From: Parcubacteria bacterium C7867-001
Lineage (GTDB): Bacteria > Patescibacteriota > Minisyncoccia > Phycocordibacterales > Phycocordibacteraceae
Reading direction: 5' to 3'
Assembly (NCBI GenBank): GCA_001189095.1
Contig: LFCK01000001.1
Location: 84,485 to 148,484, forward strand
Length of the DNA: 64,000 nucleotides
The translations under genes and the position numbers were made by a program. Shown piece by piece: positions 4,659 to 57,134 of this stretch (position 1 is its first letter; each line of letters starts with the position of its first letter). The notes beneath the pieces were generated by a model. That model was not told the origin of the DNA. It did not search any database and saw only the letters and a program-made list of their open reading frames with translations.

Positions 4659-4700
4659 GAAACGGCCGGCGCAAAGCGCCGGCCGTTGGTTGTATTTAGA
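4659..4700. terminator. Intrinsic terminator (ACGGCCGGCGC-AAAG-GCGCCGGCCGT)
   Basis: Same stem as the 4135 hairpin, followed by TTGGTTGTATTT. Confidence 0.5.
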
Positions 4701-6454: not shown

Positions 6455-6492
6455 GTCAAACGGGCTGGCGCAAGGCGCCAGCCCGTTATTTC
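6455..6492. terminator. Bidirectional intrinsic terminator
   Basis: AACGGGCTGGCGC-AAGG-GCGCCAGCCCGTT followed by ATTTC. Confidence 0.55.
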
Positions 6493-7475: not shown

Positions 7476-7715
7476 ATGACCTATTTCGTCTACATCCTCG
7501 AATGCGCGGACGGCACGCTCTACACGGGCTCAACCACGGACCTTGAGCGCCGTCTCGAAGAGCACAACTCATCCGACAAAGGCGCCCGCTACACCCGTAC
7601 TCGCCGCCCTGTGAAGTTTAAATATTCCGAATCCTTCGGCTCTCAGAGCGACGCGCAGCGTCGCGAGTATCAGATAAAACAGCTCACCCGTCCCCAAAAA
7701 CTCGCCCTATTTTGA
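7476..7715 (+). CDS. GIY-YIG nuclease domain protein
   Basis: YFVYILECADGTLYTGSTTDLERRLEEH is the GIY-YIG motif with R and E. Confidence 0.8.
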   Translation: MTYFVYILECADGTLYTGSTTDLERRLEEHNSSDKGARYTRTRRPVKFKYSESFGSQSDAQRREYQIKQLTRPQKLALF

Positions 7716-8111
7716 AGCGCGAATAATTATTACAAGGCTGATAGCAAGATAAACGCCAGCAATCCATTGAGCCGCTATTCCCAGTGAAGGGGTCAAAAAG
7801 TCCATTGATTGATTGGTTGGATAGAAGATGAATATAAGTGCGGCAATCGGGACATACCACTTTGCAAACTTTTTCCACGCCGGTATCGCCTTAGGTACTG
7901 CAAGGAGAAGGGCAAATACAATAGCGAGTGCCCCAAATCCGTAGAATGCCGGAACCCCAATTCGGTCATAAAAATTCAAACAAGCAGGATCTCTTTTCAG
8001 CCCTTCATATATACAAATTCCATACTGGATAGTATGAGTAAAAAGATACCCAATCCCTGCACCGATGAGGGAACCTGTAAGGGCAAACGGAAGATACTTC
8101 TTTAGATTCAT
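7707..8111 (-). CDS. Membrane protein, hypothetical
   Basis: 134 aa with four hydrophobic helices. Confidence 0.45.
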   Translation of the reverse strand: MNLKKYLPFALTGSLIGAGIGYLFTHTIQYGICIYEGLKRDPACLNFYDRIGVPAFYGFGALAIVFALLLAVPKAIPAWKKFAKWYVPIAALIFIFYPTNQSMDFLTPSLGIAAQWIAGVYLAISLVIIIRASK

Positions 8112-8119
8112 CTGTTTTA

Positions 8120-11017
8120 TTATATCGCCCCCTGAAGCTGGTCGAGAAGGTTAAGCAGGTTCTGGGTTTCAGCTTCAACAAGGGCTCCTTTTGCTGACTT
8201 TGCCCTGACTGCTTTTGCCATGGTATCGATAGATTTGCCTATTCCGGCAACGCTCTCCAGCTTTCCAAGCTTTGCCAGAAGAGACGATTTTAGAGATAGG
8301 CTAATATTTGCAGAATTTATTTGGCCCTTTAATTCTAGAATAAGCGCGGGATCGAAGGGGACGATTGAGCTTTGGGCCAGTAGCTCATCAAGAAGAGCGA
8401 TGAGTGTGTTTGCTGTAGACGCGTCGATTCTTCCTTTCTCAGCCTTCTTTTCAAGTTGCATCTTAATTTTCGATAAGGAGTTAGTCTGTTTCTGTTTTTG
8501 CTTTGCGATTTTCGTTTCTACGTTAGCAATCTTATTTTGCAGCTGTGTCTTTACCTTCGCAGAAGCGTTTAAGTTTTGGACGGCGTTCTTGAGATTGCTC
8601 AAGACGTGTTCGATTGAGAGGTTCGAGCCATCGGATGGGATATACGTATCTACTTGACCGTCCCCGTTCTGATCAACTTCAAGCTCTGTGTTTACGAGTG
8701 TGGTTCCGTCAATCGAGAAAGTTGCAGAAACGGATGGCGTCACAGGCATGTCCGTAAAGCCGGAAAAGGGGTGAATTTCATCGTTCACAAAAGTTGCTGT
8801 CTCAATACTTGCCTGTCCAGTGTCAGTGCCTTTGAATTTAAGCGTGTAGTTCACACCTTTAGGAAGGAAAAGATATTGGTTTTCGCCCGAAACGAGGAAA
8901 TTGCTTCCCGGAATGTTCTTAGAAATGAAAAGAATTTCCGACGTCAAATCTTGATTTTGATCGATACCTGTAAAATTTCCCTCAGAATCGTAAGCGCCGA
9001 TTAATATTGGTGAACGAGTAATGATAAGTAACTGTTCATCTATTTCAGAGACGTCTGGACGCTGGTCGAGAATATAAGTTGTAGTTGTTACTGACTCGCG
9101 CTTTAAAACAGAGCCTATAACTTCTTGGACGGGACCCGTGTTTAACAGATCTTTATGATCAAAATCGTGCCCCGCTTGATTCCCATTAAAAAGAGAGAGG
9201 TCGAAGAAGTACTTTTCCCCAGTAGAAGAAAGGGCGCTTGGATATACAACGGTCTGGTCGCCCTCAACGGTTGGCACTATTTTATAGCTTCGTATCGGCG
9301 TCGGAATTCCAAAAACGTGGGCATTCCAGTACGTTATCGCTTTTGTTGTAGTCAACCCCCACCCAGCGACCTGTACAACGCGTATATGCGAGGGAATTGA
9401 ATAGGAGTCCAGACCTTCATGGAGTTGGGTGCTCCTTGCGAGTAGAACTGGATCAAGCACCTCTGGAGTGCCGAGATCAGTGGGCTGTGGTGGTGTGCGG
9501 GTTACACCGGTCCCTGTGAGAAACTCGGTAAATTCATCGTAGGCATCAATAGAAACCCAAAGATCACGCCATGCTTGCGTATAGGATGCATTTTCGTCAA
9601 ACGAAATAGGAGGCGACTGTACCGAATCAAAGTACATCTTGCTGGGCAAGAGATCATAAGTGCTCTGCATATTCTGTGCAACAGAACGCGTTGCTGGAGA
9701 GCGTACAAAGAACTCGAGCGCGAGCGGTTGTTCTCCATGGAGCAATGAGGGTATTGCTTGCGGCGTTCCGAGCTGGGGTGTTCCAATCATGACGAACGAA
9801 CCGATCAAGCCGTCTTTCCCTTCTCCCTGCAGTTTCTTGATTAGTGTTTTGCCTAGCAGGCCTCCCATCGAGTGAGCAACAATGGTCACTTTGCCGGTTT
9901 TGGAATTTGCCGCTAGTGCCTCGAAGGTTGCTACAGGATCAACTATTCCGTTCTGAGTCTTTATTCCATCAGAGAGAATTCTCTCAGGAGAGAAACGCCA
10001 GTCATACGCAAGAGGTTTCCATTCGCGTATCACGCTGGTCGTGGCGAGGTCGTCCATAAAGGAAGCGAATCCACCGTAGAGATTAGCTCCGTAGAAATCA
10101 CTTAAAGCACCCGCGACCGTAATGTCGTTTACGCTGTTTCCGTTCTCATCAAGTGCGAGACGACTAACGTCATGGCTCCAAATGCTCGGCGGCCAAAGAG
10201 AATCGTTTCCTTCTTTTAAGGCACTACCCTCAATACCCGGAAGGAAAAGAACATTGTCGTTGCAGTTTTCCGTACAAACGGGAATTGGTGGCGCATCGGT
10301 TGAAAGGCGGAGATACACCGCACCGGTATTTACGTTCGGAGCATCCTGAATGCCGTCATTGCCGAACGGATACTGCGATACGCTCGCTCCCACCATCGAA
10401 AGTCCCGGATAGTAATACGTTTCGCCATGCAGATCTGTTTCGCTCACAATGCCGTTGCCATTAATTTCAAAGACATAGTGCTGTCCGGCAGCAAGAACGG
10501 TGCCGGAGGGGAACGAAAATGAGGCGATGCAGGGAGCTGAGAACGGACTTGCGGCTGAGCCGTCACCATTACAGAAATCCCCATTTTGAGCTTCAAACAA
10601 CGTTGAGGCGGGAATCGGTGCTGACGCGGCAACCAACTCACCCGTAACCCATGACTCATCAGCCGCATATATTTTCACCGCAACGGTGCCGGCAGTAAGC
10701 GGGTGCGCAGAAATATTTGGGAACCCTCCGACGGTCAGATATACCTCGAAAGTATCGAAAGTGTAGGAATGATCCGCGTCATACCAGTGGTCGAAATCCT
10801 TGGCGACATCCATCCAGATACCACCCGGCGTCGTGCTCGAGATTTCTGAGTAGAGCAAACCACCACCAACAAAAGCGCCGTTTGGGGAGCCCCAAACGGC
10901 GTGCGGAAATTCATAGACGACCGTGCTCGACGCAGTGTCAGCGAAAACAGGAAAGGGAAGCGCGCCAAGCGCAAGGAGTAAAAGCCCTATGTGGCCCGCG
11001 ACCTGGAAACGCGGCAT
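8120..11017 (-). CDS. Secreted alpha/beta-hydrolase lipase/esterase (965 aa) with C-terminal coiled-coil
   Basis: Signal peptide MPRFQVAGHIGLLLLALGALPFPVFA; GxSxG nucleophile elbow VTIVAHSMGGLLGKTL (PGAP1/LCAT-like lipase signature); last ~250 aa are an AT-richer heptad-like coiled coil (LQNKIANVETKIAKQKQKQ...). Confidence 0.65.
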   Translation of the reverse strand: MPRFQVAGHIGLLLLALGALPFPVFADTASSTVVYEFPHAVWGSPNGAFVGGGLLYSEISSTTPGGIWMDVAKDFDHWYDADHSYTFDTFEVYLTVGGFPNISAHPLTAGTVAVKIYAADESWVTGELVAASAPIPASTLFEAQNGDFCNGDGSAASPFSAPCIASFSFPSGTVLAAGQHYVFEINGNGIVSETDLHGETYYYPGLSMVGASVSQYPFGNDGIQDAPNVNTGAVYLRLSTDAPPIPVCTENCNDNVLFLPGIEGSALKEGNDSLWPPSIWSHDVSRLALDENGNSVNDITVAGALSDFYGANLYGGFASFMDDLATTSVIREWKPLAYDWRFSPERILSDGIKTQNGIVDPVATFEALAANSKTGKVTIVAHSMGGLLGKTLIKKLQGEGKDGLIGSFVMIGTPQLGTPQAIPSLLHGEQPLALEFFVRSPATRSVAQNMQSTYDLLPSKMYFDSVQSPPISFDENASYTQAWRDLWVSIDAYDEFTEFLTGTGVTRTPPQPTDLGTPEVLDPVLLARSTQLHEGLDSYSIPSHIRVVQVAGWGLTTTKAITYWNAHVFGIPTPIRSYKIVPTVEGDQTVVYPSALSSTGEKYFFDLSLFNGNQAGHDFDHKDLLNTGPVQEVIGSVLKRESVTTTTYILDQRPDVSEIDEQLLIITRSPILIGAYDSEGNFTGIDQNQDLTSEILFISKNIPGSNFLVSGENQYLFLPKGVNYTLKFKGTDTGQASIETATFVNDEIHPFSGFTDMPVTPSVSATFSIDGTTLVNTELEVDQNGDGQVDTYIPSDGSNLSIEHVLSNLKNAVQNLNASAKVKTQLQNKIANVETKIAKQKQKQTNSLSKIKMQLEKKAEKGRIDASTANTLIALLDELLAQSSIVPFDPALILELKGQINSANISLSLKSSLLAKLGKLESVAGIGKSIDTMAKAVRAKSAKGALVEAETQNLLNLLDQLQGAI

Positions 11018-11073
11018 GCCGCCACCCTACCAAATCCGTCACCCATTTACCAGCCCCCATCCTCTCTAGAGGA

Positions 11074-11111
11074 GGTAACTATAACTCTGGATATCCAGAG
11101 TTATAGTTACC
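11074..11111. repeat. Perfect 38-bp palindrome GGTAACTATAACTCTGGATATCCAGAGTTATAGTTACC; candidate operator or RNA hairpin
   Basis: Read directly from the sequence. It overlaps the stop codon of the PaaX-like gene and lies ~57 bp upstream of the lipase start codon. Confidence 0.9.
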
Positions 11112-11686
11112 TAGGTTTTTCTAATTTTGGCAAAGAGAAGTGGGCGCGAAGGGCGGCTTCATTTTCAATATGATCAACAATCATATACAAAAGATTCTTT
11201 CCTATCCGTAACTCAGCTTTCAAGAGCGTCACAAGATCTTCGGCATTGTGTGGAGAAATCCAGACACTATTTTGCAATCGTACAAAGCCGAACGCAGTAA
11301 GCAGTTCTTTTATACGTTGTCGGAGAACTGGGGCTCGGCCCTGAATATCATAAATAACCAGACGCCATTTCTGATCCCACTTTTTTCTTCTCCCATCCCT
11401 ACCACACGAAGCAAGGAAAAACTTACCTTTGTCTGTAATGCGTATGCGGGATGTGCCGCTCTCCCTCTGAATTTCGAGGTATCCAAGTCGAGCAAGTCGG
11501 TCAATGCTTTTTCGAATCTGAAGCCTTCTCTGAACCACGTGTTTTATCTGGCCTAACGCAACGAGAACGTTGGGAGCGACTATTGCGACAGAAATTAATC
11601 CAGATGTCGCTACAGTAGCCAATATGGCTTTATTGATTTTGGTTCGTCGGATGGACTTGTGGTTCGCTGCTTCTAGTTTACCCATG
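11107..11686 (-). CDS. PaaX-like transcriptional regulator (wHTH plus PaaX C-terminal-like domain)
   Basis: WDQKWRLVIYDIQGRAPVLRQRIKELLTAFGFVRLQNSVWISPHN fits the PaaX C-domain. Start MGKLEAANHK at 11686, taken instead of the track's 11739, because that upstream extension is encoded by the palindrome itself. Confidence 0.55.
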
Positions 11687-11688
11687 AA

Positions 11689-11724
11689 GTAATTATAACT
11701 CTGGATATCCAGAGTTATAATTAC
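11689..11724. repeat. Perfect 36-bp palindrome GTAATTATAACTCTGGATATCCAGAGTTATAATTAC; second copy
   Basis: Read directly from the sequence. Sits 2 nt upstream of the PaaX-like start codon. Core TATAACTCTGGATATCCAGAGTTATA is identical to copy 1, and the outer-arm difference (AGTTAC vs AATTAC) is compensated so each copy stays a perfect palindrome. Confidence 0.9.
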
Positions 11725-11735
11725 TTGTGTATATA

Positions 11736-11778
11736 GCATTAACGCATTAACGCGTTGAGGCTTTGAGGCACTGAGGCA
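11736..11778. repeat. Short tandem direct repeats (GCATTAAC x2; TGAGGC x3)
   Basis: GCATTAACGCATTAACG and TTGAGGCTTTGAGGCACTGAGGC, just upstream of the PaaX-like gene. Confidence 0.6.
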
Positions 11779-11835
11779 TTAAGACATGGACGTATACGTA
11801 TATATGTGTACGGCTTGCATAAAAGTTTTGAAAAA

Positions 11836-11872
11836 GAGAAAGTCCGGCGCAGAGCGCCGGACTTGTTTTGTT
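11836..11872. terminator. Intrinsic terminator (GTCCGGCGC-AGAG-GCGCCGGAC then TTGTTTTGTT)
   Basis: Hairpin plus T-run 22 nt after the stop of the small membrane ORF. Confidence 0.6.
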
Positions 11873-11884
11873 GAATGCGAGAGA

Positions 11885-12079
11885 TCAGTGCTCAGCGCGA
11901 CGTTCGCTCTGCAGAATGGTCGAGACGAGGCACATGCCGCCGATGAGGGCGCACAGCAGCCCGCCGAACTGTGAGGTGCTGCTCGCTTCGAACGAGAGCC
12001 ACGTGGGCAGAAGCGCTGCGCAGCCGCCTGAGGCAATCGCGAGAAGCGAAAGGAACGCGCGGACGAATGAAGGGCGCAT
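11885..12079 (-). CDS. Small two-TM membrane protein, hypothetical
   Basis: 64 aa, hydrophobic, followed by a terminator. The overlapping 131-aa ORF in another frame looks like a GC-frame artefact. Confidence 0.4.
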   Translation of the reverse strand: MRPSFVRAFLSLLAIASGGCAALLPTWLSFEASSTSQFGGLLCALIGGMCLVSTILQSERRAEH

Positions 12080-12246
12080 GACCGCGACAAAAATGCCGTA
12101 ATCACAGCTACCCCAAACAGAGCCTGTTCGATGAGTACGAGCTCAAGGGTATTCGACATTGGACTCCTCCACAAAGGTGCAGGAAAACGGCCTGCACTCC
12201 AGCCTTCGTTTATACGCCCCCTTCAAAAAAAAGGCAATACGGTACA

Positions 12247-13089
12247 ATGAGGCCCATGAAGCGGGCGACCAAAAAAAAGACGAAGAAACTGCCGATCGAC
12301 TATTGGAGCCATTCCTCCCTTATGGCGTTCTTGCGTAACCCGCTCACGTGGCACAAGCGGTACGTTGAGAAGATATACGATCTTCCGCGCACGCCAGCCT
12401 CGGTGATTGGCAGTGCGGGGCACTATGCGCTCGAGCTCTTCTATAACGGTGCACTCAAGGAAGAGGCTATTAAGGAAGGACTTGATTACATCCGTCGAAT
12501 CTCAGACTTCGAACTTAACTTCGGGGTGGCGAAATCAAAGAAGGAGAAGCGCGCGAAGCGCGCCTCCATGGAACGCGATTATGTCCAAGCGATCAACTTT
12601 TATCTCGCGCGGCCGCCGCGTCACAAAGTGATTGGGGTCGAAGTGAAATCGATGGCGAGCGTTCCCGGTCTTCCGCTTCCGGTGAAGGCAATCTCCGACC
12701 TTGTCGTTGAATCAAAGGGGAATCCGGGGATGGTCGATATCGTCGACCATAAGTTCGTTGATTCTTTTAGTAAGGGAAGTGATAAGCCTGCGTTCGCACT
12801 CCAAGCGCTTTTCAATTACTACACCGTGACCGAGCTGTATGGGAAGCCAGTCTGTCGCTTCATCGTGTATGAATGCAAGAAGCGTAAAAATGCTGACGGA
12901 CGGCCGCAGCTACGTAAATACGTGCTTGTCTATTCGGAAATAGAAGACATGTTCCTGTTCTTCCATCGACTTCTTCAAGATGCAACGGACGAGCTTGCAC
13001 GCGAACGTGCGTATCTTCCGAATCCTTCAGATATGTTTGAGGGCGATCACTCAGTCGATCTCTATCGACTCGGACTTGTGAATCAGTGA
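12247..13089 (+). CDS. PD-(D/E)xK superfamily nuclease (RecB/Cas4-like fold, no Cys cluster)
   Basis: WSHSSL...GSAGHYALE N-terminal motif and D...VDIVDHK core (D / D-x-K). Confidence 0.45.
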   Translation: MRPMKRATKKKTKKLPIDYWSHSSLMAFLRNPLTWHKRYVEKIYDLPRTPASVIGSAGHYALELFYNGALKEEAIKEGLDYIRRISDFELNFGVAKSKKEKRAKRASMERDYVQAINFYLARPPRHKVIGVEVKSMASVPGLPLPVKAISDLVVESKGNPGMVDIVDHKFVDSFSKGSDKPAFALQALFNYYTVTELYGKPVCRFIVYECKKRKNADGRPQLRKYVLVYSEIEDMFLFFHRLLQDATDELARERAYLPNPSDMFEGDHSVDLYRLGLVNQ

Positions 13090-19613: not shown

Positions 19614-20093
19614 ATGGGCTATACTACAACGTATATGAAAGGAATGTTCTGGAATATCTTTTTCCTCGTGTTCTTCGCCGTGCTCGTGCTCTTCGGCTAC
19701 GGCTGGCTGTATGACAATGCACGGACACCGGACTGGATCTCGCTGGGCGATTTCTTCCTCATCGTACTCGCCATTTTCCGCCTCGTGCGCCTTGTTTCGT
19801 ATGACCTCATCCTCCACTTCTTCCGCGATTGGCTCGCAAAGGCTCCTGCAGATTCTTTTCTCGGAACGCTCTCGGCGTTGGTGCATTGTCCGTGGTGCAC
19901 CGGCCTTTGGTTCTCTGGCTTCGTTCTCTTCTTCTACTACGCAACGCCGTTTGCGTGGCCGATCATCCTCATGCTCGCACTCGCGGCCCTCGCTTCAATC
20001 CTTCAAATTCTCGCGAATCTGATTGGCTGGACTGCGGAATCAAAAAAACGTTCGGTTGTTGGGCAACAAAACTCAACCTCTACCTGCGGATAA
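19614..20093 (+). CDS. DUF1360 membrane protein; start may be at 19635
   Basis: FRLVRLVSYDLI and HCPWCTGLWFS motifs typical of DUF1360. Confidence 0.6.
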   Translation: MGYTTTYMKGMFWNIFFLVFFAVLVLFGYGWLYDNARTPDWISLGDFFLIVLAIFRLVRLVSYDLILHFFRDWLAKAPADSFLGTLSALVHCPWCTGLWFSGFVLFFYYATPFAWPIILMLALAALASILQILANLIGWTAESKKRSVVGQQNSTSTCG

Positions 20094-20145
20094 AAGAAAA
20101 ACTCCCGTCGAAACGGGAGTTTTTCTTTCGGGGAACTAGAGGGGT

Positions 20146-37899: not shown

Positions 37900-37911
37900 T
37901 TCGCTAAAAAG

Positions 37912-37945
37912 TAAAAAGGCCTCACGCTTGTGAGGCCTTTTTACT
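37912..37945. terminator. Intrinsic terminator after nrdA
   Basis: AAAAAGGCCTCAC-GCTT-GTGAGGCCTTTTTAC. Confidence 0.65.
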
Positions 37946-37994
37946 TCGCTTGAAGTTGTGTAGTAGGGGAAAGTTATACACAGGTTATGCACAA

Positions 37995-38732: not shown

Positions 38733-38765
38733 AAAAGGCCGGCGCTTTGCGCCGGCCTTTTGGGA
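38733..38765. terminator. Bidirectional intrinsic terminator (GGCCGGCGC-TTTG-GCGCCGGCC)
   Basis: Same stem as the terminators at 4135 and 4661, in inverted orientation, flanked by A-run and T-run. Confidence 0.65.
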
Positions 38766-40633: not shown

Positions 40634-40738
40634 GTGAGCGTTCCTTTCGTTGGATTCGCTCGCCTGCACAGTAGCATGTGAATAGTAGTGTTTCAATAAA
40701 ACAAAAAACCGGCTCCCCGAAGGGGAGCCGGTTTGGCG

Positions 40739-43819: not shown

Positions 43820-43931
43820 AGACGTGCGCGGTTAGTGGTAATGAGAATAGGAAACCATCTAGCGCGCGAAGTTTTGGTGAAGGAAAAGTAAAACGGCCCG
43901 CGAAGCGGGCCGTTTTACGAAGGATACGCGT

Positions 43932-55212: not shown

Positions 55213-55287
55213 AAACAGCCCGCGCTTTGCGCGGGCTGTTTTCTATAGAAAAACCGCCGAGCCAAGGGCTCGGCGGTTATGTTTTCA
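55213..55287. terminator. Two tandem terminator hairpins between convergent genes
   Basis: CAGCCCGCGC-TTTG-CGCGGGCTGTTTTC and ACCGCCGAGCC-AAGG-GCTCGGCGGTTATGTTTTC. Confidence 0.6.
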
Positions 55288-57093: not shown

Positions 57094-57134
57094 CAAAACG
57101 CCGCGACGAGCGAAGCTCGTCGCGGCGTTTTGCA
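57094..57134. terminator. Intrinsic terminator of trxB
   Basis: AAAACGCCGCGACGAGC-GAAG-CTCGTCGCGGCGTTTTGC. Confidence 0.65.

Follow-up and report, generated by a model that had tools for sequence, protein, structure and literature searches.

A mini-PaaX regulator with a Cas2-like domain and its putative operator pair beside a lipase operon in a Parcubacteria genome

Introduction

PaaX, the phenylacetyl-CoA-responsive repressor of the paa genes in Escherichia coli and Pseudomonas (PDB 8A39), is a 316-residue protein with an N-terminal winged helix, a Cas2-like domain and a C-terminal helical domain. The operator of E. coli PaaX, TGATTC-N27-GAATCA, has a span of 39 bp, and the protein acts on its own promoter as a repressor that hinders RNA polymerase (review PMC9493321). 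Here we analyse a 64,000-nt stretch of the genome of Parcubacteria bacterium C7867-001 (contig LFCK01000001.1, positions 84,485 to 148,484; hereafter the window), a metagenome-assembled genome of the Patescibacteria that is deposited under GCA_002396685.1 as well, in which the gene for a 192-residue PaaX-like regulator lies between two perfect palindromes and is followed by the gene for a giant lipase. All coordinates refer to the whole 64,000-nt stretch, and positions within a site are counted outward from the palindrome centre.

Parts of this arrangement are found in other described systems. LacI (O1/O2), GalR (OE/OI) and DeoR are repressors with an auxiliary operator beyond the promoter. 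REPtrons, which consist of a RAYT/Y1 gene and repetitive extragenic palindromes (REPs), likewise place a small gene between two like palindromes and are vertically inherited. The literature that we searched on PaaX/Cas2-like proteins in Patescibacteria does not describe the module reported here, which is conserved, probably self-regulating and apparently undescribed.

Results and Discussion

The upstream palindrome, U (11687–11726), and the downstream palindrome, D (11073–11112), are each perfect over 40 bp, contain no loop and are 38/40 identical. The arms of U, AAGTAATTATAACTCTGGAT and ATCCAGAGTTATAATTACTT, meet at 11706|11707, and those of D are AGGTAACTATAACTCTGGAT and ATCCAGAGTTATAGTTACCT. 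Comparison of the two copies revealed two arm differences, C/T at position 14 and G/A at position 19 from the centre, both of which are mirrored on the opposite arm, leaving each copy still perfect. An earlier, sequence-only reading of this DNA had recognized the perfect palindromes and the matching change on the second arm, and here it holds; its length of 36–38 bp and its single arm difference are replaced by 40 bp and two differences. The stems are AT-rich (7 GC pairs of 18). The regulator gene is on the minus strand and U ends 1 nt before its ATG, in agreement with the earlier description of a copy that abuts the start codon. D takes in the last codon (AGG) and the stop codon (TAA) of the regulator, again as described, and its end lies 55 nt from the lipase ATG when measured from the edge of the 40-bp palindrome, instead of about 57 bp.

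Searches with the 26-bp core, allowing up to 3 mismatches, returned just U and D in the 64 kb and nothing in 100 shuffles. A box-only scan found no third site in the window, the next-best match having 10 mismatches, the same as in shuffles. A metagenome scan with the 22-bp core gave two exact matches (L082:9960-9996 and L083:3110-3145), each within a terminator-like hairpin that is followed by a T-run and precedes a lysine 2,3-aminomutase-like radical-SAM gene of an unrelated organism with low G+C content; because the palindrome has just 11 free bases, these were rejected as chance matches.

The regulator gene (11107–11685, minus strand; ATG 11685–11683, stop TAA 11109–11107) has a start codon that is backed by an MGK..E N-terminus kept across 30 homologues. 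Residues 101–175 match the Pfam family PF20803 PaaX_M with 58.9 bits (cutoff 24, E 5e-16), which bears out the assignment of the protein as PaaX-like, and the PaaX_M domain is annotated on all 120 homologues listed. Cas2 models score at their thresholds: Pfam PF09827 falls just under its cutoff (23.0 bits, cutoff 23.8) and NCBIfam TIGR01573 lies just over (24.8 bits, cutoff 24.5), and PADLOC returned Cas2 models alone. The match to TIGR02277 is partial (45.6 bits against a cutoff of 264.55), pairing residues 56–157 with model positions 36–139. E. coli PaaX (8a39) ranked first in a profile search of PDB sequences, with residues 58–153 aligned, and was also the top match when an AlphaFold2 (AF2) model of the regulator was submitted to Foldseek, followed by Cas2 and VapD structures. 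The mean predicted local distance difference test (pLDDT) value of this model is 69.5; the core reaches about 80–88 and residues 6–54 are poorly modelled (pLDDT <50). A single-sequence PDB search with the Cas2-like half of the protein gave no match. Pfam detects no PaaX N-terminal domain in the regulator, and a PaaX-type winged helix is suggested by the TIGR02277 match and by the profile and Foldseek matches to 8a39. There is likewise no Pfam match to the helical PaaX_C domain, and the protein stops about 15 residues past the Cas2-like domain. As judged from these comparisons, the regulator is most likely a two-domain mini-PaaX, composed of a putative winged helix and a Cas2-like domain in the same order as in PaaX and without the C-terminal domain of the latter. 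The hydrophobic stretch at residues 20–45 was considered as a transmembrane helix and provisionally rejected: it aligns with helices 1–2 of the PaaX winged helix, in a region (residues 6–54) where the model is poor, and with an N-in orientation the DNA-binding domain would come to lie on the outer side of the membrane.

With Cas2 the regulator has in common the ferredoxin-like fold and the N-terminal signature, and it differs by the fused, putative DNA-binding winged helix and the bracketing palindromic sites. It retains YDI at the end of β-strand 1, with an invariant Asp113, as well as Arg122 and GF.RLQ.SVW, signatures that E. coli PaaX has lost (YDI and Q.SVW among them). The equivalence of Asp113 to the catalytic Asp of Cas2 rests on hidden Markov model (HMM) coordinates and motif similarity. 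Neither within ±10 kb of the regulator nor in the top families of genes that neighbour 76 and 78 homologues is there cas1 or any other Cas family, and no CRISPR array was seen in the 64-kb window or near homologues; a CRISPR role of the regulator is therefore unsupported. Genes of the paa pathway, with which PaaX is associated, are also missing from the ±10 kb around the regulator and from the same top neighbour families.

The regulator belongs to a large family, with 601 clusters (50% identity) at E<=1e-30 and more than 535 loci in species-representative genomes, often with several copies per genome. As a comparative set we analysed by script 80 homologous loci (L002–L081) from other Patescibacteria. 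The module layout recurs in these 80 loci with sequences that are private to each: the palindrome arms vary between loci, and the upstream and downstream copies inside one locus are alike. Long zero-loop palindromes occur at 1.34/kb within 200 bp of family genes, compared to 0.030/kb elsewhere, a 44-fold enrichment. The family thus differs from PaaX in being multi-copy per genome with a private operator for each copy, and also in having a second operator past the stop codon and a promoter that is probably leaderless, as detailed below.

The upstream site is a regular feature of the family. A dyad with at least 14/20 matches lies within 60 nt upstream of the ATG in 57 of 78 loci, compared to 2.3% of control positions, and in 32 loci its centre is 17–18 nt from the ATG, a distance that is 21 nt in the window. 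The central hexamers of the upstream sites are CTATAG (25), CGGTCG (12), CGACCG (9) and CGATCG (4). When 64 upstream sites were aligned on their centres, the symmetry proved to be bipartite: positions 2–5 are paired at 0.78–0.98 and positions 11–18 at 0.83–0.98, with the spacer positions 6–10 paired at just 0.47–0.70 and everything beyond position 20 at background. Such bipartite symmetry is expected of protein contacts and not of a continuous hairpin. The same profile is displayed by 35 downstream sites, and the proposal that the dyad symmetry marks a protein operator gains support from both sets of sites.

The regulator's core promoter appears to be embedded in U. A −10-like TATAAT (11692–11697, minus strand) is located in the gene-proximal arm, 6 nt before the A of the ATG, and right-arm positions 6–11 of the upstream sites in general read T/A/w/w/w/T. 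In the 36 loci of the proximal class, TANNNT stands 6–8 nt before the ATG in 33, compared to 27% of other genes, and a Shine-Dalgarno (SD)-like motif is seen in only 2. TATAAT, 6 nt and ATG form the layout expected of a leaderless messenger RNA (mRNA) with its core promoter inside the operator, and the regulator transcript is probably leaderless, with its 5′ end at the ATG or close to it. Transcripts of this kind may be widespread in these Patescibacteria. For other genes of at least 150 residues in the 80 loci, about 12% carry an SD-like motif at −18 to −4 and 27% carry TANNNT 5–8 nt before the ATG, figures that depend on start codons set by a crude longest-ATG call. The span of the upstream palindrome is like that of the PaaX operator, and its distal boxes place a dyad over the −10 box and the start; we therefore read it as a putative autorepression operator. 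The widely spaced geometry of the window sites, a 36–40-bp dyad with outer boxes at positions 11–18 that covers the −10 box and ATG, would suit binding of the PaaX type. Autoregulation, which the sequence-only reading had proposed, is thus implied as a prediction across the family, where the upstream site covers the −10 box and start codon.

Of 63 analysable loci, 51 have a second copy of their own site, scored at the box positions, 0–140 bp beyond the stop codon, compared to 3 of 189 in a control with foreign operators; with a strict 24-mer match the count is 35 of 63. Stray copies of the own operator are rare (6 in about 500 kb of these 63 loci). Since the two copies are alike within a locus while operators diverge between loci, the downstream palindrome would be bound by the same protein. 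U and D type sites are 594–764 bp apart, and the downstream copy is direct relative to the upstream copy in 19 loci and inverted in 8. Obvious options for the downstream site are an auxiliary operator, acting in cooperative or looped repression, or a transcriptional roadblock. The arrangement resembles that of LacI, GalR and DeoR in that one operator covers the promoter and a like copy, presumably with the same binder, lies hundreds of base pairs away; it differs in that the mini-PaaX pair brackets the repressor's own gene, at 594–764 bp and with no helical phasing.

Operators and proteins change together. Operator divergence tracks protein divergence (rho −0.32), about 6 of 36 operator positions differ between proteins that are more than 70% identical, and paralogues in one genome, which are 39–65% identical, have different outer boxes. 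Matches of an operator to other loci fall almost all at the upstream and downstream sites of other family genes. The gene of the homologue nearest to the window's regulator (L092, 48% identity) is followed by a perfect 36-bp palindrome that shares ACTATAACT with the window in the same register, at positions 7–15. Protein columns and centre type (CTATAG vs CGRYCG) were also compared by mutual information, an analysis that was dropped because its signals were weak and confounded by phylogeny.

Directly past D, and co-oriented with the regulator, is the gene for an LCAT-family lipase/acyltransferase (8120–11017, minus strand; 965 residues; PF02450, E 7.6e-13), which is predicted to be secreted on the sole basis of a signal-peptide-like N-terminus. 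It is followed directly by the gene for a small hydrophobic membrane protein (7707–8111, minus strand; 134 residues), a conserved partner: a gene for 122–147 residues comes after the lipase homologue in L087, L088, L089, L090, L091 and the P0394 contig. The regulator stop and the lipase ATG are 89 nt apart, 34 nt of which are palindrome, and no terminator intervenes; transcription of the lipase must therefore begin in D or read through D. A TATAGT (11078–11083, minus strand) in the lipase-proximal arm of D is a candidate −10-like element of a lipase promoter, although the consensus promoter scan, finding no −35 match, did not call it.

Comparison with lipase homologues in other genomes suggests that the link between regulator and lipase is kept in part. 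In L090 (GCA_964446525.1) the order is regulator (42% identical), site, lipase (41%) and small membrane protein (48%), and the PDDEXK neighbour there is among the closest to that of the window (71% identity). The closest lipase homologue (L087, 64%) is preceded by a perfect 40-bp palindrome centred on CTATAG, 38 nt from the ATG, on a contig that ends 20 nt upstream of the palindrome. In L002, L062 and L063, too, less than 4 kb separates lipase homologues from family genes, and the L063 locus has three box-perfect sites that separately bracket a lipase homologue and a divergent regulator, the third of them (L063:538-579) about 400 bp past the 3′ end of the 950-residue lipase homologue. The earlier suggestion that the module also controls the lipase is thus upheld in part, by the L090 synteny, the L087 palindrome, the L063 sites and the 89-nt gap; what tells against it is that the downstream site is found family-wide whatever the neighbour (51 of 63 loci) and that the regulator is missing from most lipase-homologue contexts. 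Control of the lipase by the regulator in this genome is plausible, and their link here looks more than incidental.

The explanation that we favour, and hold to be probable, is that the palindromes are the cognate binding sites of the mini-PaaX encoded between them, a predicted autorepressor that in this genome would also gate the lipase operon. The regulator would act as a dimeric repressor with the Cas2-like domain as its dimerisation domain. Its site would be a bipartite dyad of about 36–40 bp, with an inner core at positions 2–5 and outer boxes at positions 11–18 that carry the locus-specific sequence. Protein bound to the upstream site, over its own core promoter, would shut off its own synthesis, and repressor on the downstream site would gate the lipase, through occlusion of a promoter within the palindrome or as a block to transcripts that read through from the regulator gene. 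Several observations weigh against this explanation. The inner core of the window sites, GGAT|ATCC, is unlike the family majority (GCTA|TAGC or CGRYCG), the regulator is an outlier of its family (at most 48% identity to any homologue), and a scan for the sigma-70 consensus called a −35/−10 pair at neither palindrome. The two sites show no helical phasing across family loci, in a test that is weak at 600–760 bp. Of 48 loci, 29 have a convergent and 19 a co-oriented neighbour past the downstream site, so that this site is not generally the promoter-operator of the next gene, and the regulator is absent from 4 of 6 lipase-homologue contexts. Finally, the window sites, like about a dozen more, have perfect symmetry over 40 bp or more, spacer included, which exceeds what protein contacts need, and inter-copy differences in 12 loci fall at 30 mirrored against 15 unmirrored positions. 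The mirrored differences mean that some extra force keeps the arms identical. Template-switch correction of quasi-palindromes and the formation of cruciforms or hairpins are possible causes of arm identity; a further candidate is that the Cas2-like domain acts on the conserved centre.

Part of this evidence would also fit a downstream site that serves the regulator alone, as an auxiliary operator or by stopping the regulator transcript at a roadblock, with the lipase under its own control and next to the module by accident. We consider this unlikely, though well worth keeping in mind: 81% of loci have the downstream site, irrespective of the neighbour, and the neighbours are very diverse, have housekeeping functions and are more often convergent than co-oriented, to which the lipase contexts without a regulator may be added. 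It accounts less well for a terminator-free 89-nt gap in which the palindrome fills a promoter-sized space, or for a regulator-site-lipase-membrane protein block that is kept in L090 and a palindrome that precedes the L087 lipase, and the weak phasing test gives looping no help. A different proposal makes the protein irrelevant and has the palindromes act as nucleic-acid structures, either as hairpins at mRNA ends with effects on stability, processing or termination or as DNA cruciforms. Perfection over 40 bp in each copy, the mirrored differences, a strong predicted RNA fold (−47.5 kcal/mol, z −5.2) and a T-run after the plus strand of the downstream copy count in favour of this proposal. A hairpin would not be expected to have the family-wide pairing seen here, with 47–70% in the spacer and 83–98% in the boxes, and the mismatches show no excess of G.U (30 GT vs 20 AC). 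On the transcribed (minus) strand there is no U-tract after either palindrome, and a leaderless mRNA, if such it is, would leave the upstream copy untranscribed from its own promoter. Rfam gave no match in the window at the gathering threshold, the sole matches being miRNA hairpins at chance level (E 0.1–0.2). The RNA or DNA hairpin that the sequence-only reading had offered as the alternative to an operator is therefore not supported, in view of the weakly paired spacer, the lack of G.U excess and the Rfam result, and we regard a purely structural role as quite improbable.

The retained Cas2 signature raises the question of whether the regulator could be a site-specific nuclease or nickase, a Cas2-like dimer acting on the palindrome centre, with the sites as its substrates too. 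In contrast to E. coli PaaX, the regulator keeps YDI with the invariant Asp113, Arg122 and GF.RLQ.SVW; the scores of Cas2 models reach or approach their thresholds; and between loci the site is most conserved at its centre, C-K-R|Y-M-G, and variable in the outer boxes. Contacts of the DNA with a conserved part of a repressor would equally lead one to expect a conserved centre; moreover, PaaX_M domains have no known activity, the centre in the window departs from the family consensus, and stable vertical inheritance together with intact sites argues against frequent cleavage. This reading seems to us very improbable. A more general form of it, just as speculative, holds that the Patescibacteria proteins called 'solo Cas2' or 'PaaX-like', which number in the hundreds, are sequence-specific DNA enzymes that nick the centre or resolve cruciforms: variable winged helices would read the private outer boxes, and a catalytically competent Cas2 dimer, with its invariant Asp, would act on the conserved centre of the palindromes around its own gene. 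If true, this would explain the perfectly identical arms and would represent a previously unknown activity and context of the Cas2 fold outside CRISPR; we rate its chances as very slim. The least probable of the explanations considered, and one to which we attach hardly any weight, is that the unit is a present or recent mobile, REPtron-like element, with the palindromes as its ends or as REP-like partners mobilised by the Cas2-like protein. The palindrome-gene-palindrome layout is like that of RAYT/REP units, and in L088 a true Y1_Tnp gene between 23-bp palindromes takes the equivalent place before a lipase homologue; the G+C content of cassette and lipase is lower (0.40–0.47) than that of the window (0.54), and synteny with L084 and L085 breaks at the locus. 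The regulator differs from a REPtron protein in having no transposase (HUH/Y1) domain by Pfam, and the window-type palindromes are not dispersed, have a bipartite, operator-like symmetry and, upstream, keep a constant place with respect to the −10 box and ATG. The window locus displays no target-site duplication, orthologues of at least 65% identity mostly retain their neighbours on both sides at similar divergence, and same-genome paralogues, at 39–65% identity, are not recent copies. The viral contigs searched contain no family members, and the mixed orientation of the downstream copies (19 direct, 8 inverted) does not suit element ends. The earlier conclusion that the palindromes are not the ends of an insertion sequence (IS) is thus strengthened by syntenic orthologues, undispersed sites and viral contigs without copies. 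A dispersed REP or miniature inverted-repeat transposable element (MITE)-like repeat, which that reading had named as the finding that would overturn it, was looked for, and the 64 kb yielded two copies of the site and the about 500 kb of loci 6 stray copies.

Many members of the family are named 'CRISPR-associated endonuclease Cas2' in public records, and others are unnamed or called 'PaaX' or 'repressor'. The present data suggest that the family consists of self-regulating DNA-binding proteins, each with a private 36–40-bp operator pair, and not of Cas2, which would correct this annotation habit. The family would supply a ready set of apparently orthogonal repressor/operator pairs. The −10 box 6–8 nt before the ATG, with a probably leaderless transcript, would be the first concrete promoter/operator anatomy that we could find for this largely uncultured group. 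Lipid synthesis is absent from Patescibacteria, which take their lipids from hosts. Because they must obtain host lipids, a regulator that gates a giant LCAT-like lipase would offer a testable entry to the control of host-lipid scavenging, and, by analogy with PaaX, which senses an acyl-CoA, a lipid-derived effector is a reasonable guess.

The stretch 7700–12250 of the window was compared with the contigs of the nearest relatives, L084 and L085. These retain PDDEXK-DsbA-RNaseH-HisRS, and rpoC-dnaG-rpoD adjoins PDDEXK where the window has the regulator-lipase module, which was possibly relocated or acquired; the difference amounts to a synteny break and not to a clean empty site. The Y1_Tnp gene of L088 (L088:4198-4943) encodes a 227-residue IS200/RAYT-like protein with an HUH motif, lies directly upstream of a 50%-identical lipase homologue and has a copy of the palindrome ATGTCAAGGTGTCACCTTGACAT on each side; this REPtron-like unit stands in the place that the regulator cassette takes in the window. 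Another Y1_Tnp gene is located just past the lipase operon of L091 (L091:7861-8532).

On its upstream side the module is closed by a bidirectional intrinsic terminator (11840–11864) with an 11-bp stem, 8 GC pairs and T-runs on both strands. The remaining long inverted repeats of the window are ordinary terminators composed of an A-tract, a GC stem and a T-tract. Terminator-like intergenic palindromes, which look bidirectional, are found at 4661–4687, 6459–6487, 20093–20128, 37909–37946 and 38733–38761, with more at 40706–40734, 43888–43918, 55213–55241 and 57094–57132; they clearly form a different class from the two AT-rich zero-loop palindromes. The copy of the contig in the public collection (L001, about 9900–9974) has N's upstream of the regulator that cover half of U, and was of no use as a check on that site. 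On the regulator promoter side, about 10–50 nt outside the outer edge of U, there are direct repeats at 11736–11777, namely two copies of GCATTAAC (11736–11751) and three of TGAGGC (11756–11761, 11764–11769 and 11772–11777).

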